This document shows positions 12,618 to 54,645 of a stretch of 64,000 nt of DNA, piece after piece. A program made the translations under genes and the position numbers. How positions within the stretch are numbered: the first letter of the stretch is position 1; each line of letters opens with the position of its first letter. The notes beneath the pieces were generated by a model that saw only the letters and a program-made list of their open reading frames with translations, had not been told where the DNA came from and made no database searches. The DNA lies in the sequence record OR780565.1; one strand, 5' to 3'. This DNA is from Escherichia phage DCP2.

Positions 12618-12667
12618 GTCTAAATACCATGTAATAAATATATCTATATTTATACTGAGGAAATATT

Positions 12668-25027: not shown

Positions 25028-25092
25028 TTTTGAATGATTTCTTGGTTTTATTGTAACAAACTTAGAAATAATCACTTGTTTCCTCGAGAATA

Positions 25093-25106
25093 GGGGCCGA
25101 AGCCCC
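25093..25106 (-). terminator. GGGGC-UUCG-GCCCC hairpin after gene 18
   Basis: Minus strand reads ggggcttcggcccc immediately 3' of the gp18 stop. Confidence 0.6.
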
Positions 25107-25114
25107 ACAATCAA

Positions 25115-27094: not shown

Positions 27095-27125
27095 TTTTAA
27101 TCCTCTTTAATATGCTTTAATATAT

Positions 27126-30263
<3,138 letters not shown>

Positions 30264-30305
30264 GATTTTCTCCTAATCTGGGCTTTAATTAGTTTATAAT
30301 ATTTA

Positions 30306-32007
<1,702 letters not shown>

Positions 32008-32009
32008 TT

Positions 32010-32025
32010 AAAATCCTTTGGGGCC
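32010..32025 (-). terminator. GGGGCC-TTGC-GGCCCC hairpin after wac
   Basis: Perfect 6-bp inverted repeat between wac and gene 13. Confidence 0.55.
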
Positions 32026-32038
32026 TTGCGGCCCCATG

Positions 32039-33496: not shown

Positions 33497-33505
33497 TTGT
33501 AATCC

Positions 33506-35056: not shown

Positions 35057-35712
35057 GCTACTCTCTCAAAATAATAAAATACTGTAGGTTGTGTGTGACT
35101 ATCTAGCGTAACAGTTTGCGCACCTAATAATTGCCAAGTTCCATACCCAGGTTTAGAAGGAGAAATTATTTCCTGTTTGAAAGTAATTCCTTTATCAGAG
35201 TATTGTTCTAAGATATGTTCTTGGTTATCTAAATACTTAACTTGTATTTTATTTCCTATGGTAGGATGGTCTTCAAATGAATCAATTGCAATAAATTTTA
35301 CAACCATTTCCTGTAGAGCTATTCTAACGGCACTAGTAAATTCAATTGAAGTCATTCCATTAGTAGCTTTAACTGGAATACCAAACATGTTAACAATAAC
35401 TGGGTCACCTGATTTGACTGAAGTATCAGTAACAGTTCCTTCAAATGACCAATAGTCGGTTTGTTGCACGCCAGTAGGAGATACGCCGCTTATATTAACT
35501 AATACAGCTCCAACCGGTTGCTCTGCCATATTTCTAACATCATTGATAGCAGATTCTACATTCGGGTCATAAAAACCTTTTGCTATTTGTGAAATTGTTA
35601 CAGCGCCTACTGGCTGATTATTCATAACCGAAATATCATTTTTCTTAGTTCTAAAACCAAGAAAATCTGCTAAGCGGGAAATAACTCCCGCTTTATTATT
35701 AAGTAAACTCAT
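35053..35712 (-). CDS. 11: gp11 baseplate wedge / short-fibre attachment
   Basis: Start set at MSLLNNK (35712), giving 219 aa as in T4; TAATG overlap with the gene 10 stop. Confidence 0.85.
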
Positions 35713-37517
35713 TATGCAATCCTTATCCAACGGTATACAGTAATAGACGGTTGAATATTACTAATATTAGTAGGAGGAGTATGTGAAGAGTTTGTTGTTG
35801 CGTAGTCTTCACGATATTTTGTATATATAGGACCAGTTTCGTCTGGGTCATATTGACAACCTCCAATAATAACTGATCCGTTTTCATCTTCAATTAAAAC
35901 TTTTTCATCAGTTTTAGTCGCAGGAAGATTTGCGTTCTCAAGTGTCACCGATGTTGTTCCAACTGTTCCACCGGCAGTATGTGAAGGATTTCCGCTAGAA
36001 TCTAAATCATTATTGTTTAAAGCAAAGTTTGGATCCGTAACATCATCATTCCATCCTACTAAAACTTGTCCTTTACCAAATAATTTCCATGAACCAAATC
36101 CCATATAAGTCACCGGATTATTTGGATTTATAGCATTTTCATAAATTGAACCTACAGGATAAATGCTATCGAAAATAGATGATATTGAATTATACGTTCT
36201 AGTATAAGAATCAACTTTTTCAACATTTGGCCAACCGATTTTATCAAAATCTGTTAAGGCTACATCACCAGTAACTTCGGTAGATGATCCTTTACTAACA
36301 TAACGGTCATCCGTTAATTCAATGATGTCATCTTTTTCTAAAAGAGTTCCTAAATCATTATTGAACCACGTTATAACGATTATATCGCCTGATTCAAATT
36401 TTCTATCAAATAAAAGACTGGTAGGTTTTCCATCTTCATATTCTATAGAATAATCTGTGTTTGATTCTTTCCATTCGCCACCAAGAGATATACATCCTTC
36501 TTGCGTATCTGAATTAGCGCCTTCGCACAAAAACAGAGGATACCCAGCTGTTCCAGCCTGTTGCTGTAAAATTCCATTAAAACGAACCTCAAGAGAATTA
36601 GGATTAATGGGTTCGCCAGGAATTAATCCAAAAGCTGAAAATGGAATTGATTTCATCGCCGATAAATCAGTAACATAAATGCTTCCTTCTAAAGAAGTCT
36701 TTGATGTTAGTTTTGAATCTAGCACTTTTATTTGGCGTCTTGTATATGAACTTCTCCATTGTGATACACCATCCATAAACGTTTCAATTTGAACAGTGTC
36801 GCCAATATTACAAGGCTGTCTTAACCTAATATTAAATCCATCAAGAGGAATTAATTCTCCTTCATTTTCCCCCGGAGAGCCAAAGTCACTGTTTTCACTA
36901 AATACATCGCCGTAATATAATTCGTTACCGCGGTGTTTTACTCTGATGTTATTGACATTATAACTAGTTCCATGGAAAACATCTAAAAAGTCAGTTTGTC
37001 CTTGAACTTCTACTAAAAATTCTTTGCGAGCTACATTACTAATATCTGAACTAATAATTTTATCAATTTGTTTGTTTTTGACATACTCCCAACGTCCTGG
37101 AGCGCAATAAACGAGCTCTAAATCACTAAATTGAATATTAATTTCAACTGACGATGACGACCCTTTAATTGTATCCCCAGAAGCAGCTACTAAAGTAACT
37201 GGATTAATGTTCCATGTTGCAAATACATCCCTAGCTCTAATTACTTTATTATAATCATTAACAGTTCCTTTAGGAAGTTGTAAAGTTACTCTTCCAGAAG
37301 AGGTATTAATAGCGTATGATTTTCCCCACTTAGCTTTTAATGTTTGACCGGATGAAGCATTATAAGTTTTCCAGGCACCGGCTGAATATGGAACATCTCC
37401 ATCGCCAAGTTCATAATAAAGTTCATCAAAGTTTTCATTTATTTTTATACCACCTTTACGCAGGTAGTCACCGGTACCATCATCAACAACATTACCGATA
37501 TTAATATTTTGTTTCAT
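35712..37517 (-). CDS. 10: gp10 baseplate wedge subunit
   Basis: 601 aa (T4 602). Confidence 0.85.
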
Positions 37518-38383
37518 TATTGAGCCACCCCGATTTTCTGCGTAGCGATAACTTTAACTGCTGCTCTCATACCGACAGTTGAAGAACTTATAGTCGCTGT
37601 TACATAATTTGTTTTAATACTAAATGCAATATTAGCGATTTCGTCTTCTTCAGTTTCATTCCCAACTCGCATGACAGCATATTCAGAAGAAATGACCTCT
37701 GAATTAACATTATCCACAAGAATATTTATTTCTGCTGTTTTAATTTTTCTTCCATCTATCGATTGGCACGTAACTAACAATTTAGCCATGTTATATTCAG
37801 TACGGTGAAATAGTGGAATGTCAACTGATCCAGATGTAGAAATATTCCATGTACCTTCAGCTGGTGATTCCTTTTGTCCAAACATACTTTCAATAGAATA
37901 ATTCCAAACAGATGTAGAATTATCAGATGAAATACATCGTAAAGTAACTTTACTATATGGGCTAGTTACTACCAAATTACCCGAAACGCCTTTGATTGAA
38001 TCAATAGCCTGAATTGTTAAAGGATTAGTAACTGATATTGATCCATTTGAGTTAATAAATTCAACACAGTCGCCAAGTTCGCCTTTTTCAATGATAACTT
38101 TAACACCTACAGTAGAGGTATCAATATCATGTCTAGTGCCAACTTTTACTGGAGTTGCGTACTCTGCTATAGAGTGCTTTTGATAATATCCAGTAGCATG
38201 GATAATTTGGCCATTTGCTCCAGTGCCATTTGCTACTGCCATTTTGCGCTGATCGCCAAACGCATTATAAATTGCGTTAAAATCACTATTAATTTTATTA
38301 CCACCGTCGAATAAGATATCACCAGTAGAAGCGTTACCAATTTCGCCGGTATCAATCAATTTCTTTGGTTCTTGAATGAACAT
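37517..38383 (-). CDS. 9: gp9 baseplate wedge, long-fibre socket
   Basis: 288 aa, same as T4 gp9; minus-strand TATAAATA at 38408-38415. Confidence 0.85.
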   Translation of the reverse strand: MFIQEPKKLIDTGEIGNASTGDILFDGGNKINSDFNAIYNAFGDQRKMAVANGTGANGQIIHATGYYQKHSIAEYATPVKVGTRHDIDTSTVGVKVIIEKGELGDCVEFINSNGSISVTNPLTIQAIDSIKGVSGNLVVTSPYSKVTLRCISSDNSTSVWNYSIESMFGQKESPAEGTWNISTSGSVDIPLFHRTEYNMAKLLVTCQSIDGRKIKTAEINILVDNVNSEVISSEYAVMRVGNETEEDEIANIAFSIKTNYVTATISSSTVGMRAAVKVIATQKIGVAQ

Positions 38384-38423
38384 AGCGGTTTCCTTATGAG
38401 TTTATAGTATTTATAAAGAAAAA

Positions 38424-38441
38424 GGGAGCCCATGGGCTCCC
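38424..38441 (-). terminator. GGGAGCCC-ATG-GGCTCCC hairpin after gene 8
   Basis: Perfect 8-bp inverted repeat between genes 8 and 9. Confidence 0.5.
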
Positions 38442-38446
38442 TTAAT

Positions 38447-39451
38447 TTAAAATGTAAACAGAATATTGATTTCTTCTGTCTGATCCATTGCCATGATAAT
38501 AGGTGGCCTATTTTCCATATAAATCATTTCGCCCGAATGCCTCATTAAATCTTCTGGATCATAATAATCCTTTTCAGCTTTAACGTTTGGGTCATTTGGA
38601 TGAACTTTAGCTTCAAGAGGATTGGTGATTATTGATATTTGTCTAAATCCTTTATTTCCCGGTAATGCAGCATCAGGAAAATAAACTGAATCTAAATATG
38701 CTTTAAAACGGATAGTATTTGCCTTAACACGGTAAATTAATCCAAAATCATCTTGTTGCCAAGTGAGATTATCTTCATACCCCCATCTAGTTGGGTCTTC
38801 TTTTAATTCCTCAGGCCAAGGAACTACGATATATTCATTTGTGCATCTATTTATAGATACATCAGGCGGAATCTCAAAAAGATATTCCCAAACATATCCG
38901 TCTCCAGGTTCGATTGTTCCTTCCGCGTCTCCTCGACCTTCAGGAGGAGTCATTGACCTAACAGAAGGAGTCCATTTTCCACCTAACTTAATACATTCAT
39001 CCTTGTCAGTCAAAGATGTTATTGAGCATGTTCCTGTGTCAGGAACATCTAAACAACGATATACTAGCCATCCTGCGCCTGATTCAGTAGCATTGTAAGG
39101 AGCTGAGTTACATACTACAATATCGTTAATTCTAAATGTGTATGGATCCGGATATCTAGTATCTCCCCAATCTCTACGAGGAATAACCGCATCAAGCATA
39201 GATGGAAGAACCTTTACGGTTCCCATCATATGAGTCCACATGTCAGTTACACCCAATACAGAATCAGTTGGATAAGGTGGAGCAAAGCCCACCTCATTTT
39301 CATTTGATGACCACGGTTCTGATCTTCCAAATGTGATAAAGATAGTGTTTTTATCCGGACCACTCCCAATTGAATTATAAAAATTCAACATTTTTTCTGT
39401 TCTAAATTTTGAAGTAACTATCGCACGATAGATAACACTTGAATCATTCAT
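38447..39451 (-). CDS. 8: gp8 baseplate wedge subunit
   Basis: 334 aa, same as T4 gp8. Confidence 0.85.
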   Translation of the reverse strand: MNDSSVIYRAIVTSKFRTEKMLNFYNSIGSGPDKNTIFITFGRSEPWSSNENEVGFAPPYPTDSVLGVTDMWTHMMGTVKVLPSMLDAVIPRRDWGDTRYPDPYTFRINDIVVCNSAPYNATESGAGWLVYRCLDVPDTGTCSITSLTDKDECIKLGGKWTPSVRSMTPPEGRGDAEGTIEPGDGYVWEYLFEIPPDVSINRCTNEYIVVPWPEELKEDPTRWGYEDNLTWQQDDFGLIYRVKANTIRFKAYLDSVYFPDAALPGNKGFRQISIITNPLEAKVHPNDPNVKAEKDYYDPEDLMRHSGEMIYMENRPPIIMAMDQTEEINILFTF

Positions 39452-42400
39452 CTATTTTAACCTGTGTTGGATTTTCAGGGTCTCTTGGATTTCCTATATT
39501 ATCTTTTAGACGTTTATTAACTAAATCCCTAAACTGTGCAAATGTTGTTCCAGATGCGTCAAATAGAGGACTCATTAACTTGCGTCGTTCAGAAGGCAAT
39601 TGACCTTGAAATATTGAATTACTATTTTCAGCATTATAGTCATCAGGAAGAGGATATTTTACACCAGCCATTGGGCCAGGTTCATAAATTGCTTCTCCTG
39701 TCACTGAATCATGTTCAATTTCGCCAGTTGGAGTTAATTTAGCTACTCTATCAGCATATTCAGTAGGCAATCCAGAATCCCATTTGTAGTTTTTGTATTT
39801 ATTAATTATAGTCTCTGTGTGTTTAAGAGTTAAACCAACATTAATAAACATCGTTAAAAGGGTAATTGCTATAAATCCAAATCCTACTGGATGAACAAAA
39901 CGAATAACGTCAGATTTCCAGCGAGAAGAAGGTAAATTGGATTTAATTTTCATTACATAATATGATCGGCTTCTATTAATATAGTCTATATTATTTTGAA
40001 GCAAATCCTTTCCTTTAACACCACGAATAATTTCGCCTTCAAAACTCGGAAGTCTTTCTGCTTTAACTTCTTGACCAGCAATTAATCTTCCCAAAAGATT
40101 ATGAATAGTTACGGTCCATTGCAATTTACCATTAGAATAACTTCTTTCTATATAAGTAACATTACATCTTCCTGTGGCTGTATAAATCGTTTGTCCTACC
40201 AAATCTTCAGTTAAAGAATCAGATTGAACGATTATATCGTATTCAGTACCAGCACCAGATTCAATTTCAATTTCAACTTCTTCATTATAAAGAACTTTAA
40301 AAAGAAATTTGTATGATGCTTCAATTCCTTTAGTAGAATAAAAATCATAGCTACGTGATTCAAAAAATCTTGCAACAGCATCACGTTTGTCAGCATTTAA
40401 ATAAATGTTTCTTTTATATATCTCTGACCACAAATATTCCCATGCATGCTCTTCTCGTGGATATTTGTTACGAATTAAATTTCGTAAATTGTTATACTGA
40501 GTTCCATATCCATCAGAAAGATATTGAATATATGCTTCGCAAAATGCCTCAAAATTCGAATCTTGTAGTAAATAAGAATCAGGCATCATTGTGCCAATCA
40601 ATGGTCTTAAATCAGGGTCAGCTAATCCGTGCTCTTCTTCTGGTGACCAAGGAGTCTCATGCTCTTGGTTTTGTAAAAATGCTTTTAAAAATATTCCAGT
40701 TGGCTTCCAAATTATTTCAACCGTGTCTCTCACTCGATAGTTAAAATCATAATAAGAAATTATTTCACCAGAGGATTTATAAAAAAGCATCCCAGACGCA
40801 TATTTTTTAAATCCCGTGAATTTAACGTTTGGCATTACTATAGTGCAATCGCCGTCATCCCAGTATTCATGAACTAATCTATCTGGCGATGTTTCTGGAA
40901 AATTTTCAATAACTTTAGTATATTTTAAATCTGCATAAACTACCACAGCCCTATTAGAGTTGTTTATCCAGCACCGTGTATTAGACTTTTTAGACCAGTT
41001 AAAGAATGGTTCTGCATAGTATTTCATTGGCTGAGGCGTAAAAGTTTCCCAATCAGACTTTTCATCTGCTATAAATGCCATCATATGATAATGCTTATCA
41101 GCTAACCATTCACGAGGAAATTCATATTTAACGGCACCGATTAACTGATATTTTGCTACAGTTTCAGGGTCATTAACAACGTTATCATTTAAAAATTTAA
41201 AATTACTCGAAGATAGAGAAACTAATTTACCATCAGTTGACATATTCGCATACCCAGGTTGAATACGTCTTCTTTCTTCTTCAGTGTTGCCAAAAACTCT
41301 TTTCCACGTTTTTGTGTCATGATTTAAAACATATATTCCTTTATCAGTAGAATCAATTATTTTTGACGTTCTAGGATTAGCATTTAATGTTTCAACTTCA
41401 CCGATAATAAGAGCAAAAACTTTATCACCAATAGAATCCATTTTATAGCATACTGCTTTAGGATTTCCAGTTATAGTCATTGTATCAGGTTCAAATAGCC
41501 TTTCCGAATATGTTGGAGATAATGGATCAGAATCTATAGGTGCATTACTCGTTTTTATGTATCTAACTTTGTCTCTGGCGACAACGTAAATGTAATCATC
41601 GGTGCAAGTAATAGCTTCAGCTATACGATACACGTTTGCAGGTAATGTAGCATAAGTACCAAAGATTTCAACATCAAATCCCAAATGAAGTTGATCACCA
41701 AGTTTAGCGAATGTTATGTCCTGCGAACTAAATCTGACATCATCAGCTGACCATCTAACATCAGTAGATTTGCGGCCATAGAAAATCTTGTCGTATCCTA
41801 GAACGTATGTTGTGCTCGCAGATTGGTAATATACAGTCTTAGATAAAGGATATCCTACACGGTCATTGAAGAGCTTTACAGCTTTCCAGGTTTGACCTTT
41901 ATCATTGGATACTTTAACTACAGGTTGATAACGCTCAAAAAGATATAGAATCCCTTCTGATTCCATCAAATAAACTCGATTAATATCCTTACATACTTGC
42001 TGAATAGAACCTTGTATTTCATGATACTCATTTTCACCAATAATAAAATTACTTATTGATGAAACATCAGCATATGATGGGCTGAATTGGAATGATTCAT
42101 TCATCAATGCAGCCATTATAGTATCATTATTAAAATTAACATAGTCAGAATTATTAAGAGTAAATTTTTCCTGAATGAATTTATTAGCTAATTGCATTTC
42201 AATCATGTTTTGAAATGTATAAGCGTTTGTAGCAAAAGTTTCAAACTCTTCGGTATAAATCCAATCAGACTGCTCAAAATCCTGTGCAGCTGTAGCTACT
42301 CTAATAATGTACGATGTCAATGGATTAGCATTATCAAAAAAGAAGCTGTTATTTGCAGTATATCCTAAGTTAATCCATCGGTATTGATTGCTCGGGAGAT

Positions 42401-42542
42401 TTTCCCCCGAGTTTGTTTTTGTCTCAGCGATTTCTACAAAATAGTAGAAATTAGCACCAACGTCATCCCAGCGTACTTGCACCTGATTTGCGGATAACTT
42501 GGAAATTCTGAGACTAGTGACTGAAGGTGCTTTTACTGTCAT
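39444..42542 (-). CDS. 7: gp7 baseplate wedge initiator
   Basis: 1032 aa, same as T4 gp7. Confidence 0.9.
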   Translation of the reverse strand: MTVKAPSVTSLRISKLSANQVQVRWDDVGANFYYFVEIAETKTNSGENLPSNQYRWINLGYTANNSFFFDNANPLTSYIIRVATAAQDFEQSDWIYTEEFETFATNAYTFQNMIEMQLANKFIQEKFTLNNSDYVNFNNDTIMAALMNESFQFSPSYADVSSISNFIIGENEYHEIQGSIQQVCKDINRVYLMESEGILYLFERYQPVVKVSNDKGQTWKAVKLFNDRVGYPLSKTVYYQSASTTYVLGYDKIFYGRKSTDVRWSADDVRFSSQDITFAKLGDQLHLGFDVEIFGTYATLPANVYRIAEAITCTDDYIYVVARDKVRYIKTSNAPIDSDPLSPTYSERLFEPDTMTITGNPKAVCYKMDSIGDKVFALIIGEVETLNANPRTSKIIDSTDKGIYVLNHDTKTWKRVFGNTEEERRRIQPGYANMSTDGKLVSLSSSNFKFLNDNVVNDPETVAKYQLIGAVKYEFPREWLADKHYHMMAFIADEKSDWETFTPQPMKYYAEPFFNWSKKSNTRCWINNSNRAVVVYADLKYTKVIENFPETSPDRLVHEYWDDGDCTIVMPNVKFTGFKKYASGMLFYKSSGEIISYYDFNYRVRDTVEIIWKPTGIFLKAFLQNQEHETPWSPEEEHGLADPDLRPLIGTMMPDSYLLQDSNFEAFCEAYIQYLSDGYGTQYNNLRNLIRNKYPREEHAWEYLWSEIYKRNIYLNADKRDAVARFFESRSYDFYSTKGIEASYKFLFKVLYNEEVEIEIESGAGTEYDIIVQSDSLTEDLVGQTIYTATGRCNVTYIERSYSNGKLQWTVTIHNLLGRLIAGQEVKAERLPSFEGEIIRGVKGKDLLQNNIDYINRSRSYYVMKIKSNLPSSRWKSDVIRFVHPVGFGFIAITLLTMFINVGLTLKHTETIINKYKNYKWDSGLPTEYADRVAKLTPTGEIEHDSVTGEAIYEPGPMAGVKYPLPDDYNAENSNSIFQGQLPSERRKLMSPLFDASGTTFAQFRDLVNKRLKDNIGNPRDPENPTQVKIDE

Positions 42543-44521
42543 TGTGATATAGGCTCCAAATCGATAGTTAAGTATTGCGGGCGTAAATCATTTTCAAATA
42601 CAATCAGTGAACCATCACGTGTGAAAATAACATCGTCTATTGGGTCAGAATATAGTTCAATAGTCTGAACCTCAAATTTATCGGATGTTAAATTAATTTT
42701 AGCGATATTCCAATAAATCATATCAGCTGGATAATTTATTTCACCGATAACATAGTATTTGTCGCGTCCATCAGAATTTGCTAATTTATTAAAATCATTG
42801 CCTGTATATGGCTGAATGTTTTCATTTTCTGTAACATCGCCAGAAGCAAATGGACCAATAATAACTTTACCAATTCCTTTAGAATCTCGGTCTGTTGATA
42901 CTATACGAACATCATATAATACATCTTCTTCTAAACCAGTATCAGGATTTACAACCTTTCGTCCAGAATTAAATGAAAACGTATTAGATTCCATAGAACG
43001 ATCTTTTATTTGATTATTGTATTTAATACCTGCTTCAGGTGTTTTATAGAAGTTTTGTACTTCACGAACCATTTGAATAGTCGCTGATGAACCAATGACA
43101 GAATGATCTGCATCATCTACATAAGTTAACATCTTAGATTTAGCGAAAGACGAGTTAAAAATTTCTACATCTTCGGTATAATAGCGATCAATTTTATCAA
43201 TTATTTGACCTTCTAGCCACTGTTCTGATTCTTGCAGCTTATTTAAAGCATATGTGACTTTTAAATTAGTCTTAACAAAAAGATAATTAGGAGAAATAAT
43301 TGATGGTGTAATAGGAGCTAAATTATAATCTTTGAGATAATTTTTAATATCTTCACGTTGTACAGTAGTTAAATATAGTCCTGATTTAGGTTTAGCAGCA
43401 ATAAATGCATAACCGGGTTTAGTAGAATCAGTGAAAGTCTGAACCGCTTGAATAATAGAACCGAATCTTTCTGAAACAAATGTATCATAGTCGGTCGCAG
43501 TTACGCAGCGTTGCTGGGTTTCGCGTTTAATAGTACCCAATTCGCGAATACGCTCAATATCTTCTGGATCGCCACCGCCATCTGCCCCAACAAAATCTGG
43601 GTCATCGTTTGGATTTTCATTAATGTTGATGACAGTTATATTTGTTAATGTATCTGCATATGAAAATCCGACTGCGCCATTCGCATCTGCACCGTTAGTA
43701 CTGATGTACTCAATAACAATCGTAGAGTTCTGGGTAGGTTTAAGACCTCCAATATAATTAGCGGTCAATGCTCCTTCTGCCGCATTAACGGAAATCTCAC
43801 CTTCACCAAAATAAAATTCAGTATTTCCATCAATAGTTTCACGCATGTAGTAAATTGTTGATGTAGAACCAGCATGAACCATTGACTTTCTTGTCCAGTT
43901 AATCCATTCTGCTCCATCAACATACAGCTTAACTTGGTTTCTATCTATATTTTTGTCATAAATGATAATAGGTGTTAATTTATCATAAATGATTTCAGTT
44001 CTTACTATACGTCCCTGGGCTAATTTTAAACGCGGAAAATATTGGTTATTTTTATCGCGAATAGCAATAACATCTTCGGTAGATACAAAGTTATAAGGAT
44101 TAACGGAAGTATCTTTTGCATATGCTAAAAAGCGAGTACCGCGAGGAATAGTAATGTAATTTCTATTCAATGCGTCGGTGCATGTTAACATAATTTCGGT
44201 CTGCGCAGCGGATTTTGAAGTAGGTAAATATCCGTTATCTTGTGCAGCTTGAACAACTGAACTTCGTAAGTTAGCAGTACGCATAAAGCTTTCATACACA
44301 GCAGCATTACCAAACTGTTGAATGTACAGCGTATTATAAGCCAAAAGGTCGCACAGAACGTTTAATCTTGAGCCTTCAAAATCATAATCCAAAAATTCAT
44401 TTTGGCCATTAAGCCATTCAATGAGGTTTTGTTTTATTTCAGCAAATGTACCCCCGACGAATATCTCGGGAATAGCATTTGCTGTTCTTGTTAATTGATA
44501 ATTTACAGGGGTATTTGCCAT
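42539..44521 (-). CDS. 6: gp6 baseplate wedge subunit
   Basis: 660 aa, same as T4 gp6. Confidence 0.9.
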   Translation of the reverse strand: MANTPVNYQLTRTANAIPEIFVGGTFAEIKQNLIEWLNGQNEFLDYDFEGSRLNVLCDLLAYNTLYIQQFGNAAVYESFMRTANLRSSVVQAAQDNGYLPTSKSAAQTEIMLTCTDALNRNYITIPRGTRFLAYAKDTSVNPYNFVSTEDVIAIRDKNNQYFPRLKLAQGRIVRTEIIYDKLTPIIIYDKNIDRNQVKLYVDGAEWINWTRKSMVHAGSTSTIYYMRETIDGNTEFYFGEGEISVNAAEGALTANYIGGLKPTQNSTIVIEYISTNGADANGAVGFSYADTLTNITVININENPNDDPDFVGADGGGDPEDIERIRELGTIKRETQQRCVTATDYDTFVSERFGSIIQAVQTFTDSTKPGYAFIAAKPKSGLYLTTVQREDIKNYLKDYNLAPITPSIISPNYLFVKTNLKVTYALNKLQESEQWLEGQIIDKIDRYYTEDVEIFNSSFAKSKMLTYVDDADHSVIGSSATIQMVREVQNFYKTPEAGIKYNNQIKDRSMESNTFSFNSGRKVVNPDTGLEEDVLYDVRIVSTDRDSKGIGKVIIGPFASGDVTENENIQPYTGNDFNKLANSDGRDKYYVIGEINYPADMIYWNIAKINLTSDKFEVQTIELYSDPIDDVIFTRDGSLIVFENDLRPQYLTIDLEPISQ

Positions 44522-44529
44522 TTTAAATC

Positions 44530-44823
44530 CTATTTAATGAATACTTTAGATGATGCCTGAGCCACAGTATCACCGCATGATATTGGATCAGCCATTTGAA
44601 CCGCTTTCTTTCCAGTGACATATACCTTAGAAGTTCTAGGTTGTGTCACTCCGCCATGTGTTTCATATGGCTTTTTAATTTCTGTATGTTCTGTAATTGG
44701 ATCACCTGCTACGAGAACAGCAATTCCTCCAGTGAATACTTTACTTTGTGTGGCATTCACAACTGTTGGAGGCCATGCTTCATGGCCAGCAGTAACACAC
44801 TTATCATAACTTAATCCTGACAT
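44530..44823 (-). CDS. 5.4: gp5.4 PAAR-repeat spike tip
   Basis: 97 aa, same as T4 gp5.4; position between genes 5 and 6. Confidence 0.8.
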
Positions 44824-45378
44824 CTATGACCTCTCATACACATAGCTTCTTAATTTATTAGCCCAACGACTCCAATTTCCAACTATAGTTTTTGTGTAAT
44901 TTTTAACTAGAGTTTTTCTTACTGGAGCAGGAGGATCCGTCGGTTCAGTAGTATCAGAGGATGACCTAGAATTACTGCCAGAACCTCCAGATTCACTTTG
45001 TTCTTGGTAGTCATATATTAATGTTACTTCGTAAGTGAATGTCTTCTGGAGGTTTTGAGGAGCTTTCCATAAATACAACTGAGTATCAGAATCAGTAGGA
45101 AGTTCTTCCCATGAAGCAGCAGTTTTAAATTCATCGCCTAAACGATATTTCAACGCGTCATTTCCAAATCCAAACACAGATTCATATGTTCCGTATAAGC
45201 GATTTTCTTCTACTAAAACCCCAGGAGTTTCTTCGTAACTAGTTATATTTATAGATACTAACGTTTCACCTGTTTCTAATTGAGCGGTAAAGGTGACGTC
45301 GATAGAAGAACCTTCCATGGATTCTCCTAAATCAGCGCTCATTGGAAGTATATTAGCCAATGTCAATCCTCGATCCAT
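44824..45378 (-). CDS. gp5.1-like hypothetical protein
   Basis: About 184-aa ORF between genes 5 and 5.4; start uncertain (ATG at 45378 or 45342; track start is TTG). Confidence 0.55.
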
Positions 45379-47080
45379 CAATTGTGTATTGACCAGATGA
45401 AATAGAACTCATAGATGCCATTTTTTCTGTCCAATCACCACCAACGTCCCAATCAACTGTCCCAGCAACTTTCCAAGAAAGATTTCCATTTACTGTGTTA
45501 GTTTGATTTCCTTCAACTAAAGTGGTAGCATCTCCTTTAACTGTAATGTCAGCATTACCTTCAACTACAATAGTAACATTACCTTTAACTAGGATAGTTC
45601 CATTGCCTTCAACTGTCTTAGTTTCATCGCCACGTACAAATATTGTATTGCTTCCATCTATTTGGTGAAGACGATTATCCATGTTGTAATAAATTTCTGA
45701 TCCACCGACGTTAGTCTTTTTATCACCGGCTACCAAAAAATTACCATCAGCATTTGTTATATCATACAAATTATCAACAGTTTTTCTTGTTCTTCTTCCT
45801 GACGGTGATACTTCCTCATATGTTCCAGTCGGATGAACTAATCTGTATCGTTCTTGTCCCGGGGTATCGTCAAATTCCTGAATATGACCGCTTTCAGTTT
45901 CCATTGTGTGAACATACGGATATTCACCTTTATATGAAGAAACAGGTTCTTTGAATAAAATTCTTGAATCATTCGGAATAGGAGGATCGGCCGGGTCAGA
46001 AGACTTTACTACAGTAGCAGCCATTGCTGACAAAGACCTAGCTGGCGTTTTAACTTCAATACCGTATGATTCCAAATTCCCTGTAAGAATAATCATGGTA
46101 ACACGGGATGCACGGCCTTTTGTTTGTTGATACCACAATGAATCACGACCGGCTTTATATGCTTTTTCCCAATCTCCGGCTAACATAGCAGTTAACATTG
46201 TGTTAAATTTAGCTACGCCACCAACGCCCATTTGGAATGCCATATTTTCTAACGCCATTTGACGAGAACGATTAACTGCTTTCCAAACTGGGCCAACTTT
46301 AGAATGTGATTTAATGTCACGTTGCATATCAGCCAAATCGCGTTCAAATAAAGTTACCGCTTCTTCCATTGTAATAGAACCTGGATTTCCGGTAATTTCA
46401 CGACCAACTTGTTTTGATAAAACTTTATTAATTTGAGCCATATCACGAACTGGCTGCTTTATGATAAGATGACCAATACCAATTGTCGGATATCCTTCAG
46501 TATCCCAATAAACTTTTAGTCTTAATCCTTCATCACGGCGAAGCATGTCAGCCATTGACATATTTGGATTATCATCGGTTGGAATCTCTGATAGTGGTCT
46601 ATCATCGGGATTTATTGCAGTGTCTAAGTTACTATCTTGGATAATGTTAGAAGACGAATCATATCCTACTTCTCCGCCTTGGTTTAATACATTAGTATCA
46701 TTTCCTAGACGTCTAGGATACTGTCCAGTTGGGTCAGAAAATCCTTCAAGTCTATTAGGTTTTTCGCGAACTATTCCACCATACGTGCCAAGAACAATTC
46801 CGTTAGTTTTCCATTTGTCTAAAAAATGACCATAAACTCTAGTTCCTTCTACCGGACCAGTAACGGAGCCTCCAATTCCAGACATTGCTGCAGAAGTTAT
46901 AGGTTGAATAACTGACATCCATGGTAATTTATCAGTTGGAATACCCATTACATCGCCTTGTGCTCTTTGAGGTGGATGCAGACCAACTACACGAACACGA
47001 ACACGACCTAATTTTAATGGGTCCATTCTATCTTCAACAACACCAACAAACCAATTAAGGTTATTACTTATCATTTCCAT
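45353..47080 (-). CDS. 5: gp5 baseplate hub spike with lysozyme domain
   Basis: 575 aa, same as T4 gp5; internal T4-lysozyme-like segment (RRDEGLRLKVYWDTEGYPTIGIGHLI); C-terminal beta-helix repeats (VxGxxTxxVxGN). Confidence 0.95.
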   Translation of the reverse strand: MEMISNNLNWFVGVVEDRMDPLKLGRVRVRVVGLHPPQRAQGDVMGIPTDKLPWMSVIQPITSAAMSGIGGSVTGPVEGTRVYGHFLDKWKTNGIVLGTYGGIVREKPNRLEGFSDPTGQYPRRLGNDTNVLNQGGEVGYDSSSNIIQDSNLDTAINPDDRPLSEIPTDDNPNMSMADMLRRDEGLRLKVYWDTEGYPTIGIGHLIIKQPVRDMAQINKVLSKQVGREITGNPGSITMEEAVTLFERDLADMQRDIKSHSKVGPVWKAVNRSRQMALENMAFQMGVGGVAKFNTMLTAMLAGDWEKAYKAGRDSLWYQQTKGRASRVTMIILTGNLESYGIEVKTPARSLSAMAATVVKSSDPADPPIPNDSRILFKEPVSSYKGEYPYVHTMETESGHIQEFDDTPGQERYRLVHPTGTYEEVSPSGRRTRKTVDNLYDITNADGNFLVAGDKKTNVGGSEIYYNMDNRLHQIDGSNTIFVRGDETKTVEGNGTILVKGNVTIVVEGNADITVKGDATTLVEGNQTNTVNGNLSWKVAGTVDWDVGGDWTEKMASMSSISSGQYTIDGSRIDIG

Positions 47081-47654
47081 AAGATTTCTCCATTATACGT
47101 ATAAGGTCGTTCATAAATGAATTGATGTCTGATTTTGCTATTATTTTTATTTGACGAAGTTTTTCATTTTCAAGAACAGCAGCTTCATACGTATCGACCG
47201 CAGCAAGTGCTCCTTCATATTGAGGATATTTTCTAGCTTTATCGCCTTTGTCATACCAAACATATGGATTATCATCGTATGATATTAAATTATAAAATTT
47301 TTCACCATTCTCATTCACATGATATACTATTTGGTCTCCACCTACATTTTTGTATTTTTGTATAGATGCTTGATAAGCAGCTTCTTGCGAAGTAATCCAT
47401 CCATAATACGGATCATAATTATCATTACACATCAATAAAACCCAATACAACTGTGGATTTCCATATATAGCATTTGCTAATTCTTCCGGGCGTGGTGAAC
47501 CTTTAATATAATAAGTACGTAAACGGTATCCCGCAAGAGCGCGTTTGAAATAGTCTTTATAGTTTCTAAAAATATCTGTCATAGGAATAGTCGGCGCGTT
47601 TTTATTCACCGTTTTGGCCGCATATTCAATCGGATCAAAAAATGTAAAGAGCAT
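47064..47654 (-). CDS. 53: gp53 baseplate wedge subunit
   Basis: 196 aa, same as T4 gp53. Confidence 0.85.
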   Translation of the reverse strand: MLFTFFDPIEYAAKTVNKNAPTIPMTDIFRNYKDYFKRALAGYRLRTYYIKGSPRPEELANAIYGNPQLYWVLLMCNDNYDPYYGWITSQEAAYQASIQKYKNVGGDQIVYHVNENGEKFYNLISYDDNPYVWYDKGDKARKYPQYEGALAAVDTYEAAVLENEKLRQIKIIAKSDINSFMNDLIRIMEKSYGNDK

Positions 47655-47667
47655 GGGCCCTCCTGTT

Positions 47668-47690
47668 TATAAATATATTATCTATTTATA
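47668..47690. promoter_or_regulatory. divergent late promoters for genes 4 (plus) and 53 (minus)
   Basis: Plus-strand TATAAATA at 47668-47675; minus-strand TATAAATA (tatttata) at 47683-47690. Confidence 0.6.
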
Positions 47691-47701
47691 AGGAGAATCC
47701 A

Positions 47702-48154
47702 ATGGCATATTCTGGAAAATGGGTTCCTAAAAATATATCAAAATATAGAGGTGACCCTAAAAAAATTACGTATAGATCAAATTGGGAAAAATTCTTTTTT
47801 GAATGGTTAGATAAAAATCCAGAAATTATTGCATGGGGTAGTGAAACAGCAGTAATTCCTTATTTTTGTAATGCAGAAGGGAAAAAACGTAGATACTTCA
47901 TGGATATTTGGATGAAAGATTCTTCTGGACAAGAATTTTTTATTGAAATAAAGCCTAAAAAAGAAACACAACCACCAATTAAACCAGCACATCTAACAAC
48001 CGCAGCGAAGAAAAGATTTATGAATGAAATTTATACATATTCCGTTAATACTGACAAATGGAAAGCAGCTCAAGCTTTAGCTGAAAAGCGTGGAATAAAA
48101 TTTAGAATTTTAACAGAAGATGGATTACGAGCTCTTGGCTTTAAGGGGGCATAA
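47702..48154 (+). CDS. 4: gp4 head completion protein
   Basis: 150 aa, same as T4 gp4; AGGAG RBS. Confidence 0.85.
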
Positions 48155-48981
48155 TGGCTATTTTTCAAATAATTAATGAAAGCACTCCCCAAGTTCCAAA
48201 GGTTAAGCAATCATTAAACGAAAAGAAATGGATTCAGATAGGTCTTGAATACAAAAAGGCCAAAGCAAAAGGAATGACAGGAAAGCAATTTGCTGAAGAA
48301 AGAGGAATCAAATACTCTACGTTTACTTCGGCAATGTCAAAATATGCTTCAGGAATTAAAACAGCTGAAAAGATTCAAAATCTTGAATCAAAACCAATGA
48401 ATAAACTCAATAAGCAAGAAAGACAACTGCTTATGATAAATTCATTCAGACAAACATTGCGTGATAAAATTCGTAATGAAGGCGCAGCAATTAATAATAA
48501 AACCAGAAAGTGGTTTGCTGAAACTATTAAGCAGGTAAAAGGACATAAAGTTGTTCGCCCGCAGCCGGGACGAATATATGCTTTTGCTTATGATGCTAAA
48601 CACAAGGAAACTCTTCCTTATTGGGATAAATTTCCTTTGATAATTTACCTTGGTTTAGGTAAACATAATTTAATGTACGGATTGAACTTGCACTATATTC
48701 CACCTAAAGCTCGTCAACAGTTTCTAGAAGAGCTTTTAAAGCAATATGCAAATACACCTACTATTACTAATAAAACGAAATTGAAAATTGATTGGAGTCA
48801 AGTGAAAGGATTTAGGGGTGCAGACCAAATGATTAAGGCATATATACCTGGTAATATTATGGGTAGCCTAGTTGAAATCGCCCCGAAAGACTGGGCGAAC
48901 GTTGTGTTAATGCCACTCCAAAGCTTCTACTCCAAAGGAAAACGTTTCTCTGCAAACAAAGTTTGGAGCAATGTACGATGA
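48154..48981 (+). CDS. 2: gp2 DNA end protector protein
   Basis: 275 aa (T4 gp2 274); ATG overlaps the gene 4 stop. Confidence 0.85.
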
Positions 48982-49637
48982 ATTATGAAAAAATTTATAA
49001 TTCACTAATTGATAGGGCTCGCAATAGAGCCCTTACTGGATATAAAGAAAGACATCATATTATTCCGAAATGTTTAGGCGGTAGTAATGATGCTTCTAAC
49101 TTGGTTGATTTAACTCCAGAAGAGCATTATGTTGCACATCAACTATTAGTAAAAATACACCCAAATTCTTTAAAATTATCTTATGCGGCCATAAAAATGA
49201 CGGTTTCAACTAAATATGTTAGGAGAAATAATAAAGTTTATGGTTGGTTAAAAAGAAAACATGCAAATAATATTTCAAATACACAAACTGGACGAAAATA
49301 TTATAATAATGGTAAAAGATGTATAAAATTGCATGATGGAGATATAATTCCTGAGGGATTTATTTTAGGAAGAGGATGGAGTCCGACACAAGGCACAACT
49401 CATTCTAGAAAAAATGATACATTTAAAAACAAAAAGCTTCAATCTGCTTTAGCTAATAAACGGTGGGAAAAAGAAAAGAAAATAATGTTAGATAACTTTG
49501 GAGTTAGCACTATTGATGAAGCAAAGAAAATTGTTCTTGATTTTAAATCAACTTGTCATCCAAGATATTGGCGAAAGCCAACTTTAGAAAAATTTCCATT
49601 TATGACTTCTGCTCGTTTAAGAAGTCTAATAAATTAA
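48978..49637 (+). CDS. HNH homing endonuclease inserted between genes 2 and 3
   Basis: HNH motif ([32 protein letters not shown]); ATG at 48978 overlaps the gene 2 stop (ATGA). Confidence 0.7.
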
Positions 49638-49743
49638 TTCTATTATCTTCCATTCTTTTCTATTGTTTGTTCTAATTGGAATTGAATGGAAGGGACTTAG
49701 ACCCATTATACCACCAACATTTATAAAGCATTATGAGGAATAT

Positions 49744-50274
49744 ATGTCACAAGCTCTGCAACAAATTTTTAACCAAGCAAATACAACTAACTTTGTAGTA
49801 TCAATACCACATAGTAATACTACATCTGCTTTTACTTTAAATGCTCAGTCAGTTCCTATTCCGGGAATTAGGATACCTGTTACTGATACCGTGACTGGGC
49901 CGTTTGGACTAGGCCGAGCACAGCGTCCAGGAGTTACATTTGAATACGACCCACTCATCGTGAGATTTATAGTTGATGAAGAGCTTAAGTCGTGGATAGG
50001 AATGTATGAATGGATGCTAGGAACTAGTAACTATCTTACAGGCGAAAATACTGCCCAAAAAACAGGTCCTGAATACATTACGCTTTACATTTTAGATAAT
50101 AGTAAAACTGAAATCGTGATGTCAATAAATTTTTATAAGCCCTGGGTTTCTGACCTGTCTGAAGTAGAATTTAGCTACACAGAAGATTCAGACCCAGCCT
50201 TAGTATGCACAGCAACGATTCCTTATACGTATTTTCAAGTAGAAAAAGATGGCAAAATTATAGCAGAAGTTTAA
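49744..50274 (+). CDS. 3: gp3 tail completion / sheath stabilizer
   Basis: Start set at the MSQALQQIF ATG, giving 176 aa as in T4 gp3 (the track ORF uses an upstream TTG). Confidence 0.85.
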   Translation: MSQALQQIFNQANTTNFVVSIPHSNTTSAFTLNAQSVPIPGIRIPVTDTVTGPFGLGRAQRPGVTFEYDPLIVRFIVDEELKSWIGMYEWMLGTSNYLTGENTAQKTGPEYITLYILDNSKTEIVMSINFYKPWVSDLSEVEFSYTEDSDPALVCTATIPYTYFQVEKDGKIIAEV

Positions 50275-50298
50275 TGCTTCAGTTTCATGTGTTATAAT
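50275..50298 (+). promoter_or_regulatory. middle-type promoter (MotA box TGCTTCA plus TATAAT)
   Basis: tgcttca at 50275-50281 and tataat at 50293-50298, upstream of gene 1; same taaTGCTTCA context as the uvsY element. Confidence 0.5.
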
Positions 50299-50323
50299 CT
50301 TAACTAAATTTGAGGAGAAACAT

Positions 50324-51048
50324 ATGAAACTAATCTTTTTAAGTGGTGTAAAGCGTAGTGGAAAAGATACTACCGCAGATTTTATCATGAATAATTATTC
50401 TGCAGTTAAATATCAACTTGCTGGTCCTATTAAAGATGCATTGGCTTATGCATGGGGTGTATTTGCAGCAAACACTGACTATCCTTGCTTAACTCGTAGA
50501 GAGTTTGAAGGAATTGACTATGATCGTGAGACTAATTTGAATTTGACTAAATTAGAAGTAATTATGATTATGGAACAAGCATTTTGCTATCTTAATGGTA
50601 AAAGCCCAATTAAAGGTGTGTTTGTTTTTGATGACGAAGGAAAAGAATCAGTTAATTTCGTAGCATTTAACAAAATTACTGACGTTATAAATAATATTGA
50701 AGATCAATGGTCAGTCCGTCGTCTGATGCAAGCCCTAGGTACGGATTTGATTGTTAATAACTTCGACCGCATGTACTGGGTAAAATTATTTGCTTTAGAT
50801 TATCTTGATAAATTTAACTCAGGTTATGATTATTATATCGTTCCTGATACCCGTCAAGATCATGAAATGGATGCGGCTAGGGCGATGGGTGCTACAGTAA
50901 TTCATGTAGTTCGTCCTGGTCAAAAATCCAATGATACACATATTACAGAAGCTGGATTGCCAATTCGTGATGGCGATTTAGTAATTACAAACGATGGTTC
51001 TCTTGAAGAACTTTTTTCTAAAATTAAAAATACACTAAAGGTACTATA

Positions 51049-51049
<1 letters not shown>
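50324..51049 (+). CDS. 1: gp1 dNMP kinase
   Basis: 241 aa, same as T4 gp1; P-loop GVKRSGKDT. Confidence 0.9.
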
Positions 51050-53086: not shown

Positions 53087-53695
53087 ATGGATACTAAATT
53101 AGCTGAAATTTTTGAAGGAAAACATCCAAATTTTAGTACAGGAAAGCTGAAAGACAAAATAATAAAAGAAAATATTTTTCCATATGAGTGTGCAATTTGT
53201 AAAATTTCAAAATGGCAAAATAAGCATATTGTTCTGCAATTAGACCATATTGATGGAAATAACAAAAATCATCTTAAATCAAATTTAAGATTATTATGTC
53301 CAAATTGCCATTCGCAAACTGATACTTTTGCTGGTAAAAATATTAAAAATAATAAAAAGCGTTATAATGTTAGTGATGAAGAAATTTTAAACGCATTATT
53401 AAATTCGGCTACTATATCATCTGCAATTACTTCATTAGGTTTAAGTAAAGGCGGAAACTATAAAAGATTCATTAAAATTGCTAATGATAATAAATTATAT
53501 CATTTACTGGTAAATATTAATGAAAAGATTTTAACTGATGAAATTTACGAAGAATTAGTTAAAATCGATTATTCTAAATTTGGATGGGTTAGTAAAGCTG
53601 CTAAAATAATAGGTATAAGCCCACAAAAAGCTAGAAAATGGATAGAACGAAAATGTCCAGAATTGATAGAACAATCTTTTTCACGTAATAAATAA
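53087..53695 (+). CDS. HNH homing endonuclease immediately upstream of the tRNA cluster
   Basis: HNH motif (LQLDHIDGNNKNHLKSNLRLLCPNCHSQ); first ATG at 53087 (the track start is TTG). Confidence 0.7.
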   Translation: MDTKLAEIFEGKHPNFSTGKLKDKIIKENIFPYECAICKISKWQNKHIVLQLDHIDGNNKNHLKSNLRLLCPNCHSQTDTFAGKNIKNNKKRYNVSDEEILNALLNSATISSAITSLGLSKGGNYKRFIKIANDNKLYHLLVNINEKILTDEIYEELVKIDYSKFGWVSKAAKIIGISPQKARKWIERKCPELIEQSFSRNK

Positions 53696-53701
53696 TATAG
53701 A

Positions 53702-53788
53702 GCGAGAATGGTCAAATTGGTAAAGGCACAGCACTTAAAATGCTGCGGAATGATTTCCTTGTGGGTTCGAGTCCCACTTCTCGCACCA
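53702..53788 (+). tRNA. tRNA-Leu (anticodon TAA), CCA encoded
   Basis: Manual cloverleaf: gcgagaa/ttctcgc acceptor, anticodon loop cttaaaa, long variable arm, ggttcgagtcc T-arm. Confidence 0.8.
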
Positions 53789-53793
53789 AATTT

Positions 53794-53867
<74 letters not shown>

Positions 53868-53877
53868 ATTTAATTTA

Positions 53878-53951
53878 CTCCGTGTAGCTCAGTTTGGTAG
53901 AGCGCCTGATTTGGGATCAGGAGGTCCAAGGTTCAAATCCTTGTATGGAGA
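53878..53951 (+). tRNA. tRNA-Pro (anticodon TGG), no encoded CCA
   Basis: Manual cloverleaf: anticodon loop tttggga, ggttcaaatcc T-arm; 2 nt upstream of tRNA-Ser (dimeric precursor arrangement). Confidence 0.75.
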
Positions 53952-53953
53952 CT

Positions 53954-54043
53954 GGAGGCGTGGCAGAGTGGTTTAATGCACCGGTCTTGAAAACCGGCAG
54001 TCGCTCCGGCGACTCATAGGTTCAAATCCTATCGCCTCCGCCA
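53954..54043 (+). tRNA. tRNA-Ser (anticodon TGA), long variable arm
   Basis: Manual cloverleaf: ggaggcg/cgcctcc acceptor, anticodon loop cttgaaa, long variable arm, CCA encoded. Confidence 0.8.
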
Positions 54044-54047
54044 GTTT

Positions 54048-54124
54048 TGCTGATTTAGCTCAGTAGGTAGAGCAACTCACTTGTAATGAGAAGGTCGGCG
54101 GTTCGATTCCGTCAATCAGCACCA
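54048..54124 (+). tRNA. tRNA-Thr (anticodon TGT)
   Basis: Manual cloverleaf: tgctgat/atcagca acceptor, anticodon loop cttgtaa, ggttcgattcc T-arm. Confidence 0.75.
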
Positions 54125-54125
54125 A

Positions 54126-54199
54126 GGCCCTGTAGCTGGAAGGTTCAAGCAAGCGACTCATAATCGCCAGATGGTGGTTCAATTCCACCCAGGGCCACC
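54126..54199 (+). tRNA. tRNA-Ile/Met (anticodon CAT; probably lysidine-modified Ile as in T4)
   Basis: Manual cloverleaf: ggccctg/cagggcc acceptor, anticodon loop ctcataa. Confidence 0.75.
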
Positions 54200-54208
54200 A
54201 AATTAATT

Positions 54209-54296
54209 TGGGGAGTTATCCCGTAGAGGTAGCGGTGTGGACTGTAAATCCATTGTCATTGCGACTCGGGTGGTTCGACTCCACCACTCCCCACCA
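54209..54296 (+). tRNA. tRNA-Tyr (anticodon GTA), long variable arm
   Basis: Manual cloverleaf: ggggagt/actcccc acceptor, anticodon loop ctgtaaa, ggttcgactcc T-arm. Confidence 0.7.
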
Positions 54297-54300
54297 ATTT

Positions 54301-54375
54301 GGATGTGTAGCTCAATGGCAGAGCGATCGCCTGTTAAGCGATTGGTTATAGGTTCGAATCCTATCACGTCCGCCA
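54301..54375 (+). tRNA. tRNA-Asn (anticodon GTT)
   Basis: Manual cloverleaf: anticodon stem atcgc/gcgat with loop ctgttaa, ggttcgaatcc T-arm. Confidence 0.75.
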
Positions 54376-54489
54376 AATTTGTGACAACTGTCACATTAAT
54401 ATCTACTTGACGCGATTATAGGGGTTGAACTGATCACTCTTCTCTTAATTTCGTGTGAAGACATCTTGATTGTTGGAGTAGGTATTAAT

Positions 54490-54565
54490 GTGGCCGTAGT
54501 TCAGTTGGTAGAACTCGAGATTGTGATTCTCGTAGTCATGGGTTCGACTCCCATCGGTCACCCCA
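54490..54565 (+). tRNA. tRNA-His (anticodon GTG) with extra 5' G(-1)
   Basis: Manual cloverleaf: anticodon loop ttgtgat; 8-bp acceptor stem including G-1 opposite discriminator C. Confidence 0.75.
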
Positions 54566-54569
54566 ATTA

Positions 54570-54645
54570 CGGGGCATAGCTCAGAAGGAAGAGCAAGGAC
54601 CTTCTAAGTCCTAGGTCGTAGGTTCGATCCCTACTGCCTCGACCA
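54570..54645 (+). tRNA. tRNA-Arg (anticodon TCT)
   Basis: Manual cloverleaf: anticodon stem aggac/gtcct with loop cttctaa, ggttcgatcc T-arm. Confidence 0.8.

Follow-up and report, generated by a model that had tools for sequence, protein, structure and literature searches.

I-HmuI, the intron-encoded HNH nicking endonuclease of Bacillus phage SPO1, is composed of an N-terminal HNH domain and a string of small DNA-binding modules. In the mob endonucleases, a common N-terminal HNH domain is fused to a distinct C-terminal region (PMC2988022), and phage RB32 has two mob-like genes according to a 2010 review (PMC2993671). RB32ORF146c (GenBank ABI94970), which is located between genes 2 and 3 of RB32, was annotated in 2006 as 'putative site-specific intron-like DNA endonuclease ... 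similar to mobB; not conserved from T4 position', and identical copies are present in RB33, HY03, vB_EcoM_112, and others. Here, we describe the corresponding gene of Escherichia phage DCP2 (sequence record OR780565.1), of which a stretch of 64,000 nt, called the window in the following, was analyzed. The open reading frame (ORF) at 48978–49637 on the + strand lies where RB32ORF146c does and, like it, overlaps the gene 2 stop codon as ATGA; it differs from RB32ORF146c by five nucleotides in the ORF body and in no functional respect. We regard it, with a probability of about 80%, as a free-standing mob-type HNH homing endonuclease gene (HEG) whose insertion site is the extreme 3' end of gene 2. 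The block of gene 2, HEG, and gene 3 is 97.6% identical to that of RB32 over 2121 bp. The gene 2/3 endonuclease gene has thus been known since 2006; it is an ordinary type of insertion and no discovery. A literature search retrieved no paper that names this HEG, ORF146c, or VR7ORF161c, and no experiment on a gene 2/3 endonuclease.

The ORF starts with an ATG at 48978–48980, ends with a TAA at 49635–49637, and encodes 219 aa, and the gene 2 TGA at 48979–48981 overlaps its ATG exactly as ATGA. The coordinates, the overlap, and the HNH motif are as the initial annotation had described them. An in-frame TTG exists upstream at 48963, but the N-terminal MNY is almost invariant among the homologues, and thus the ATG is favored as the start codon. 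The protein matches PHROG 655 ('homing endonuclease') with an E value of 9e-59, and 2933 database homologues were found at E≤1e-5, the top match being 99% identical, which shows that the ORF is not a chance ORF. The HNH motif comprises residues 26–54 (49053–49139, + strand), and the residues H26, H27, N41, H50, and H54 do not vary across an alignment of 31 homologues. The histidine acting as general base, the structural asparagine, and the metal-binding His/Asn in a helix, by which an HNH motif is recognized, are all present. With the family profile, these residues were matched to the HNH motif of McrA (6ghc, E 0.0017); apart from generic HNH motifs, the profile search of the PDB yielded nothing, and a PDB sequence search with the single protein gave no match. 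A tblastn search of 50,697 phage records revealed 33 records with a protein identity of at least 99% and four with 95–99%. The same search aligned the protein with T4 MobB (45.2% identity, residues 1–114, E 1e-22) and with mobE of RB7 (45.5% identity, E 1e-20), and the alignments with MobB and MobE stop at about residue 114. These similarities support the classification of the protein as a mob-type HNH homing endonuclease.

An AlphaFold (AF2) model was calculated from the 31-sequence alignment and reached a confidence score (pLDDT) of 90.2. Two strands (24–27 and 42–45) and a helix (47–60) are predicted at the HNH motif, an arrangement that would correspond to a beta-beta-alpha-metal fold. Past the motif, the model contains a helix and a small beta-hairpin over the conserved YYNNG..CIKL segment. 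Residues 130–150 form a linker of lower confidence, which is followed by a C-terminal four-helix domain (residues ~152–218; 49431–49634, + strand) that presumably binds DNA.

The distribution of the HEG was analyzed with two sets of queries. A megablast search with the 2121-bp gene 2–gene 3 block matched 512 records, 36 of which contain the whole block, while Shigella phage CT01 holds 78% of it. The HEG-less span from gene 2 to gene 3 has a length of 1462 bp versus 2121 bp in DCP2, i.e., 659 bp less, in every HEG-less match listed. A census of 503 Tequatrovirus-type records, made with four junction queries of 75–80 nt, showed that the HEG is present in 37 records and absent from 466 (~93%); the records are not independent isolates, and four phages were entered twice (GenBank and RefSeq). 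The initial annotation had stated that genes 2 and 3 are neighbors in T4, and indeed the annotated T4 record shows a 106-bp spacer and no ORF between them. T4 and 466 of the 503 records lack the ORF, and thus it is by no means present at the gene 2/3 junction of all relatives. The HEG sits between conserved genes, occurs sporadically, and is precisely missing in close relatives, as is typical for a free-standing mob-type endonuclease gene. Genes 2 and 3 are both complete, and the HEG does not lie within a group I intron, in contrast to what would be expected of an I-HmuI-type gene. A role together with the gene products (gp) gp2 or gp3 in virion assembly was ruled out because 93% of the close relatives do not have the HEG.

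The boundaries of the insertion were taken from an alignment of 11 sequences. In HEG-less phages, gene 2 ends with AAA GTC TGG TCA AAT ATC TAA (VWSNI* in T4), followed by TTCTATTATC. In HEG-containing phages, gene 2 ends with AAA GTT TGG AGC AAT GTA CGA TGA (VWSNVR*), followed by the HEG ORF. The insertion therefore carries its own replacement of the last gene 2 codons, WSNVR* instead of WSNI*, and gene 2 of DCP2 has one extra codon (275 aa versus 274 aa in T4). The synonymous change of the serine codon from TCA to AGC creates a GGAG Shine-Dalgarno (SD) motif at 48966–48969, and the recoded 3' tail of gene 2 (48963–48981, + strand) strictly tracks the presence of the HEG. At its right end, the HEG reads ...AGA AGT CTA ATA AAT TAA, again followed by TTCTATTATC. 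Its last 14 nt, GTCTAATAAATTAA (49624–49637, + strand), align with the native gene 2 tail GTCAAATATCTAA of HEG-less phages, and Salmonella phage Manna has the native tail, AGT CAA ATA TCT AA, at the end of the ORF. Therefore, judging from the alignment, the last 13–14 nt of the HEG probably derive from the original gene 2 end, which the insertion would have displaced and which would mark its right edge. The 106-bp spacer between the HEG and gene 3 (49638–49743, + strand) has kept the T4 length and nearly the T4 sequence and was undisturbed by the insertion; its stem-loop (49646–49693) and the gene 3 ribosome-binding site within it are unaltered.

In Manna (locus 1325–2620), the native gene 2 tail, which is 1 nt shorter, replaces the last HEG codons, and the stop codon is lost. 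The ORF reads in frame across a 105-nt spacer into gene 3 and is annotated as a coding sequence of 431 aa. This is either a read-through fusion of the HNH protein and gp3, generated by a conversion tract ending inside the ORF, or a sequencing error.

Several features point to a mobility of the HEG. Its GC content is 29.7% (15% at third codon positions) versus 35.4% for gene 2 and 37.7% for gene 3. The pairwise nucleotide differences among four HEG-containing phages amount to 0.60% in the HEG body, in contrast to 2.15% in gene 2, 3.70% in gene 3, and 4.1% in gene 1 of the same four phages. The HEG body is thus 3–6 times less diverse than the flanking genes, and therefore the common ancestor of the HEG copies is more recent than that of the surrounding genomes. 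At least two different gene 3 haplotypes host the HEG, and each of them was also seen without it. In Manna, T4-like sequence extends to 48909 on the left side and resumes with the last HEG codons on the right side, and the HEG-associated block is therefore limited to about 48918–49626. Decay was also observed: in CT01 (locus 1325–1498), an in-frame deletion of 486 bp in the HEG has left a remnant of 57 aa without the HNH motif, while the recoded gene 2 tail and a variant cluster of substitutions in gene 2, which is treated below, were kept. CT01 contains a decayed copy, a stage of degeneration that is expected of the homing cycle.

Homologues of the HEG with 50–66% amino acid identity are present at the same junction in three other genera. 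In Gaprivervirus, 9 of about 34 records contain it, again with a length difference of 659 bp. In Moonvirus, phage NM4.3 carries a homologue at gene 2/3, while Moon, Merlin, and CF1 are without it, and Serratia phage SP1 has a homologue at this junction. The identities between genera are 53–66% for the HEG protein, 62–74% for gp2, and 45–61% for gp3, with the same rank order for all three proteins, which indicates that the HEG lineage kept this site as the genera diverged. The C-terminal part is the most divergent region of the HEG protein between genera (40–61% identity), as would be expected if the specificity tracks the local target; judging from these comparisons, the specificity has probably diverged with the host genus. 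In Gaprivervirus phage UPEC07, a second annotated homing endonuclease gene lies directly upstream of gene 4 and overlaps it (locus 46–753). This second endonuclease is situated in the divergent 53/4 region, and therefore the entire block of genes 53, 4, 2, and 3 is a landing zone for endonuclease genes in Gaprivervirus.

A pattern scan for late promoters revealed the sequence TATAAATA at 47668–47675, 27 nt upstream of gene 4; no other box of this type occurs on the + strand from 47668 to 50686. With this single box, genes 4, 2, HEG, and 3 would most simply form one late message, and the box, which fits the T4 late-promoter consensus, is likely to be the source of this transcript. The spacer was also inspected for a late promoter that would serve gene 3 alone, but this was rejected, as only TATAAAGC is present there, implausibly near the gene 3 ribosome-binding site. 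A scan for sigma-70 promoters and terminators yielded no more sites than were found in shuffled sequence. The RNA around the start codon was folded in silico. The 81-nt Tequatrovirus junction RNA folds better than shuffled versions (z −3.1), but the hairpin that pairs with the GGAG motif is no better than shuffled when folded alone (z −0.46). Most of the signal is accounted for by an AU-rich hairpin that is absent from the homologues of the other genera; it is formed by an 11-bp inverted repeat at 48979–49004, GAATTATGAAA AAAT TTTATAATTC, which begins with the G of the HEG start codon. A sequestration of the ribosome-binding site by RNA structure was therefore dropped as evidence, since the SD hairpin lacks significance by itself and the other genera show no similar structure.

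Upstream of the recoded tail, gene 2 contains 10 substitutions within 16 bp at 48918–48933 (+ strand), the sequence being CTCCAAAGCTTCTACTCC (LQSFYS) in DCP2 versus CTTCAGCAGTTCGTTTCA (LQQFVS) in T4. The cluster is located 45 bases upstream of 48963 and, in the 11-sequence sample, is common to all HEG-containing phages plus one HEG-less phage; the only sites that strictly track the HEG status in this sample are 48963 and the recoded tail. The 503-record census yielded 37 records with and 15 without the HEG for the variant cluster, and 0 records with and 451 without the HEG for the T4-type cluster. On these grounds, the cluster is a candidate for the target or for an immunity site of the enzyme. 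One recombinant class is seen while the reciprocal class is missing, and this asymmetry fits a self-cutting of HEG-containing genomes with a T4-type cluster. Alternatively, it fits conversion tracts that start at the cluster, some of which end in the 30 conserved bases preceding the HEG. An allele with glutamine plus an aliphatic residue (QV, QM, or QI) was seen only in HEG-less genomes, in Tequatrovirus, Gaprivervirus, and Moonvirus alike. More generally, these three genera share a polymorphic hot spot at the x positions of the gp2 motif L-Q-x-F-x-S (codons ~256–261), with the pairs QV, SY, QF, AY, QM, SQ, and QI and several adjacent nucleotide substitutions per change.

The mechanism that we propose begins with late transcription of the HEG within the message of genes 4, 2, and 3. 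A low level of HEG translation would result from a restart at the overlapping ATG after the gene 2 stop codon or from a start mediated by the GGAG that the insertion has made. Upon co-infection with a HEG-less relative, the enzyme would nick or cut the gene 2–gene 3 region of the relative, by analogy with MobA and MobE of T4. Recombinational repair would then copy the HEG together with a short gene 2 flank into the genome of the relative, while the carrier itself would be protected by its differences in gene 2, either the cluster at 48918–48933 or the recoded tail together with the split junction.

Four other explanations were weighed against this mechanism or parts of it. The HEG could be an inactive relic that became fixed in some lineages and is passively moved by ordinary recombination. 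It occurs in only 7% of the records, the CT01 copy is clearly decayed, the Manna copy has no stop codon and runs on into gene 3, and T4 itself contains such a relic, I-TevIII (PMC2988022). Nevertheless, the ORF is complete in 35 of the 37 records, 33 of the 37 closest tblastn hits share a protein identity of at least 99%, and the catalytic residues are invariant between genera that share only about 50% identity, which argues for long-term purifying selection. Moreover, the flanks exceed the HEG body several-fold in diversity, the opposite of what neutral decay would produce, and we consider a mere relic very unlikely. An equally low probability is assigned to the view that the enzyme is kept mainly as a weapon for the competition with, or exclusion of, co-infecting relatives, its own spread being secondary. 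The free-standing T4 endonucleases SegF and SegG cause a localized marker exclusion of T2 genes (cited in PMC2993671), and expression late in infection, as part of an essential operon, would be in line with an attack on the replicating DNA of a competitor. However, exclusion and homing are the same biochemical act at another level, nothing in the present data separates them, and the low frequency of 7% speaks against a strong benefit for the phage.

The other two explanations concern the translation of the HEG and its target. Translational coupling to gene 2, as claimed by the initial annotation, is plausible in view of the ATGA overlap, and its chances are roughly even. The HEG has its own well-spaced GGAG 8 nt upstream of the ATG, and an independent initiation is therefore possible. 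Translation could be entirely uncoupled from gene 2, with the overlap as a by-product of the insertion position, and we give this a good chance, albeit somewhat short of even. The GGAG is made by the very recoding that accompanies the insertion, and the hairpin that could occlude it does not fold better than expected. On the other hand, a start/stop overlap of 1–4 nt was kept in four genera (ATGA, TAATG, TTGA or an upstream ATG, and TGATG) despite diverged surroundings. The T4 mobE gene is arranged in the same way, for which its authors suggested a coupling that limits the synthesis of the endonuclease (PMC2988022). As for the target, the endonuclease might recognize the insertion junction itself, i.e., the end of gene 2 and the start of the spacer, which is split by the insertion, and the cluster would then be hitch-hiking donor sequence. 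In Tequatrovirus and Gaprivervirus, the insertion points agree to within a few nucleotides, and both genera have the right flank TCTATTATC conserved. In Gaprivervirus and Moonvirus, the variation of the cluster codons is independent of the HEG. A junction target predicts HEG-containing genomes with a T4-type cluster, but none was seen among the 37 records, whereas the reciprocal class has 15 members, and free-standing T4 endonucleases usually cut inside a neighboring gene, off their own insertion site (PMC2988022). We regard the junction as a possible target, on which we would not bet, and the cluster at 48918–48933, suggested by the sequence comparison, as a somewhat unlikely one; in the remaining cases, the target would lie elsewhere in gene 2 or gene 3. 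A more far-reaching version is that codons 256–261 are the recognition or cleavage site and that the two-allele polymorphism in three genera reflects a long arms race, in which HEG-less phages escape via resistant gene 2 alleles. We consider this unlikely; if it were true, a selfish endonuclease would drive amino acid changes in an essential virion protein across genera.

Several observations weigh against a homing endonuclease in the form proposed here. Recombination among T4-like phages is free, so that mosaic flanks alone are no proof of homing, and conclusions drawn from the census are weakened by the dependence between its records. The cluster in gene 2 could be mere hitch-hiking: in Gaprivervirus and Moonvirus, the respective codons are polymorphic regardless of the HEG, HEG-containing VR7 being equal to HEG-less SP18 and HEG-containing NM4.3 to HEG-less Moon, and HEG-containing UPEC07 is only 2 nt away from the T4 form at the cluster. 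The RNA structure at the junction is significant only in the Tequatrovirus copy, and nothing comparable was found in other genera. The Pfam scores are below the cut-offs, with 17.8 bits versus 27.5 for HNH_5 and 16.5 versus 21.4 for HNH; this reflects the fit of the Pfam models to this sequence, and the motif itself is intact. Two whole-chain fold searches gave no significant match and did not recover I-HmuI, which was not recovered by the HEG sequence profile search either. The literature search retrieved no activity, cleavage-site, or inheritance data for the HEG protein or a close homologue.

The genes at the locus were named by their collinearity with the annotated T4 and RB32 records. Gene 5 (45353–47080) and gene 53 (47064–47654) are encoded on the − strand, while gene 4 (head completion, 47702–48154), gene 2 (DNA end protector, 48154–48981), gene 3 (tail completion and sheath stabilizer, 49744–50274, 176 aa), and gene 1 (50324–51049) are encoded on the + strand. 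For gp3, the assignment is also backed by the Pfam family Phage_T4_gp19. The gene product of gene 4 matches the Pfam family Tn7_TnsA-like_N, which has an endonuclease fold, above the cut-off (E 1.7e-21), and this match fits newer records that name gp4 a 'head completion nuclease'.

The initial annotation had also proposed that DCP2 has a different complement of homing endonucleases from T4, with insertions at 18/19 and at the tRNA locus, a segD-like gene, and no segE. Each of these proposals was borne out by a blastn comparison of the window with the region from 71 to 127 kb of T4. The segE gene is absent, positions 12611–12631 of the window being found in place of T4 112044–112680; in T4, segE lies between inh and uvsW. 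Likewise, segC and gene 5.3, located between 5.1 and 5.4, are missing, with 44822–44827 in place of T4 80217–80775. Over the segD region, the window and T4 are collinear, with 96% identity. Between genes 18 and 19, an insertion of 644 bp relative to T4 contains an ORF of 214 aa (24470–25114, − strand). This ORF matches PHROG 5104, whose listed function is unknown, with an E value of 5e-82 and has no Pfam match. It contains pairs of cysteines and an HNH-like C-terminus, 'LDHKVS...N...ESNREK', which suggests that it is probably another free-standing endonuclease that is not so named in the libraries. The insertion at the tRNA locus contains an HNH endonuclease ORF of 202 aa (53087–53695, + strand) with a GC content of 25.5%, which matches PHROG 14736 (E 5e-124) and lies directly upstream of tRNA-Leu, at the position of tRNA-Gln in T4. 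ARAGORN predicted ten tRNAs at 53702–54645 and did not find tRNA-Gln, and the insertion may have replaced or destroyed the tRNA-Gln gene. Two further regions, 490–2181 (alt region) and 33818–34257 (within gene 12, encoding the short tail fibre), have little or no similarity to T4, and the block from 25114 to 44827 is 89–91% identical to T4 versus 95–96% elsewhere.

The HEG is one more example of how the sets of free-standing homing endonucleases account for most of the differences between T4-like phages, and beyond a correct annotation its importance is small. Nevertheless, it is a convenient test case for the target choice and the self-protection of HNH mob endonucleases. Its boundaries can be placed to the nucleotide, the recoded gene 2 tail supplies a ribosome-binding site, the start/stop overlap is conserved in four genera, and the HEG never occurs without the gene 2 cluster. 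The sequenced phages offer natural HEG-bearing, presumed sensitive, and presumed resistant alleles.

Compared with the known systems, the HEG differs from I-HmuI in being free-standing and not intron-encoded; the general design of I-HmuI would be expected for the HEG protein too, based on knowledge of the family and on the presence of PF22083 and PF07460 in some distant homologues. The N-terminal HNH domain of T4 MobB and MobE is about 45% identical to that of the HEG protein over about 110 residues, and, like the HEG, their genes are free-standing between conserved genes and sporadically distributed. As with the HEG, the start codon of T4 mobE overlaps the stop codon of the upstream gene. In contrast, the C-terminal halves of MobB and MobE are unrelated to that of the HEG protein, and the insertion sites differ, with gene 2/3 for the HEG, alpha-gt/alpha-gt.2 for mobB, and nrdA/nrdB for mobE. 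Activity was shown for MobE and MobA, and by analogy the HEG protein would be active as well. VR7ORF161c of the Gaprivervirus phage vB_EcoM_VR7 and the homologues of Moonvirus NM4.3 and Serratia phage SP1 share with the HEG the gene 2/3 junction and the architecture, and in Gaprivervirus also the net insertion of 659 bp; they are annotated as 'putative mobile endonuclease, similar to MobB and RB32 ORF146c'.

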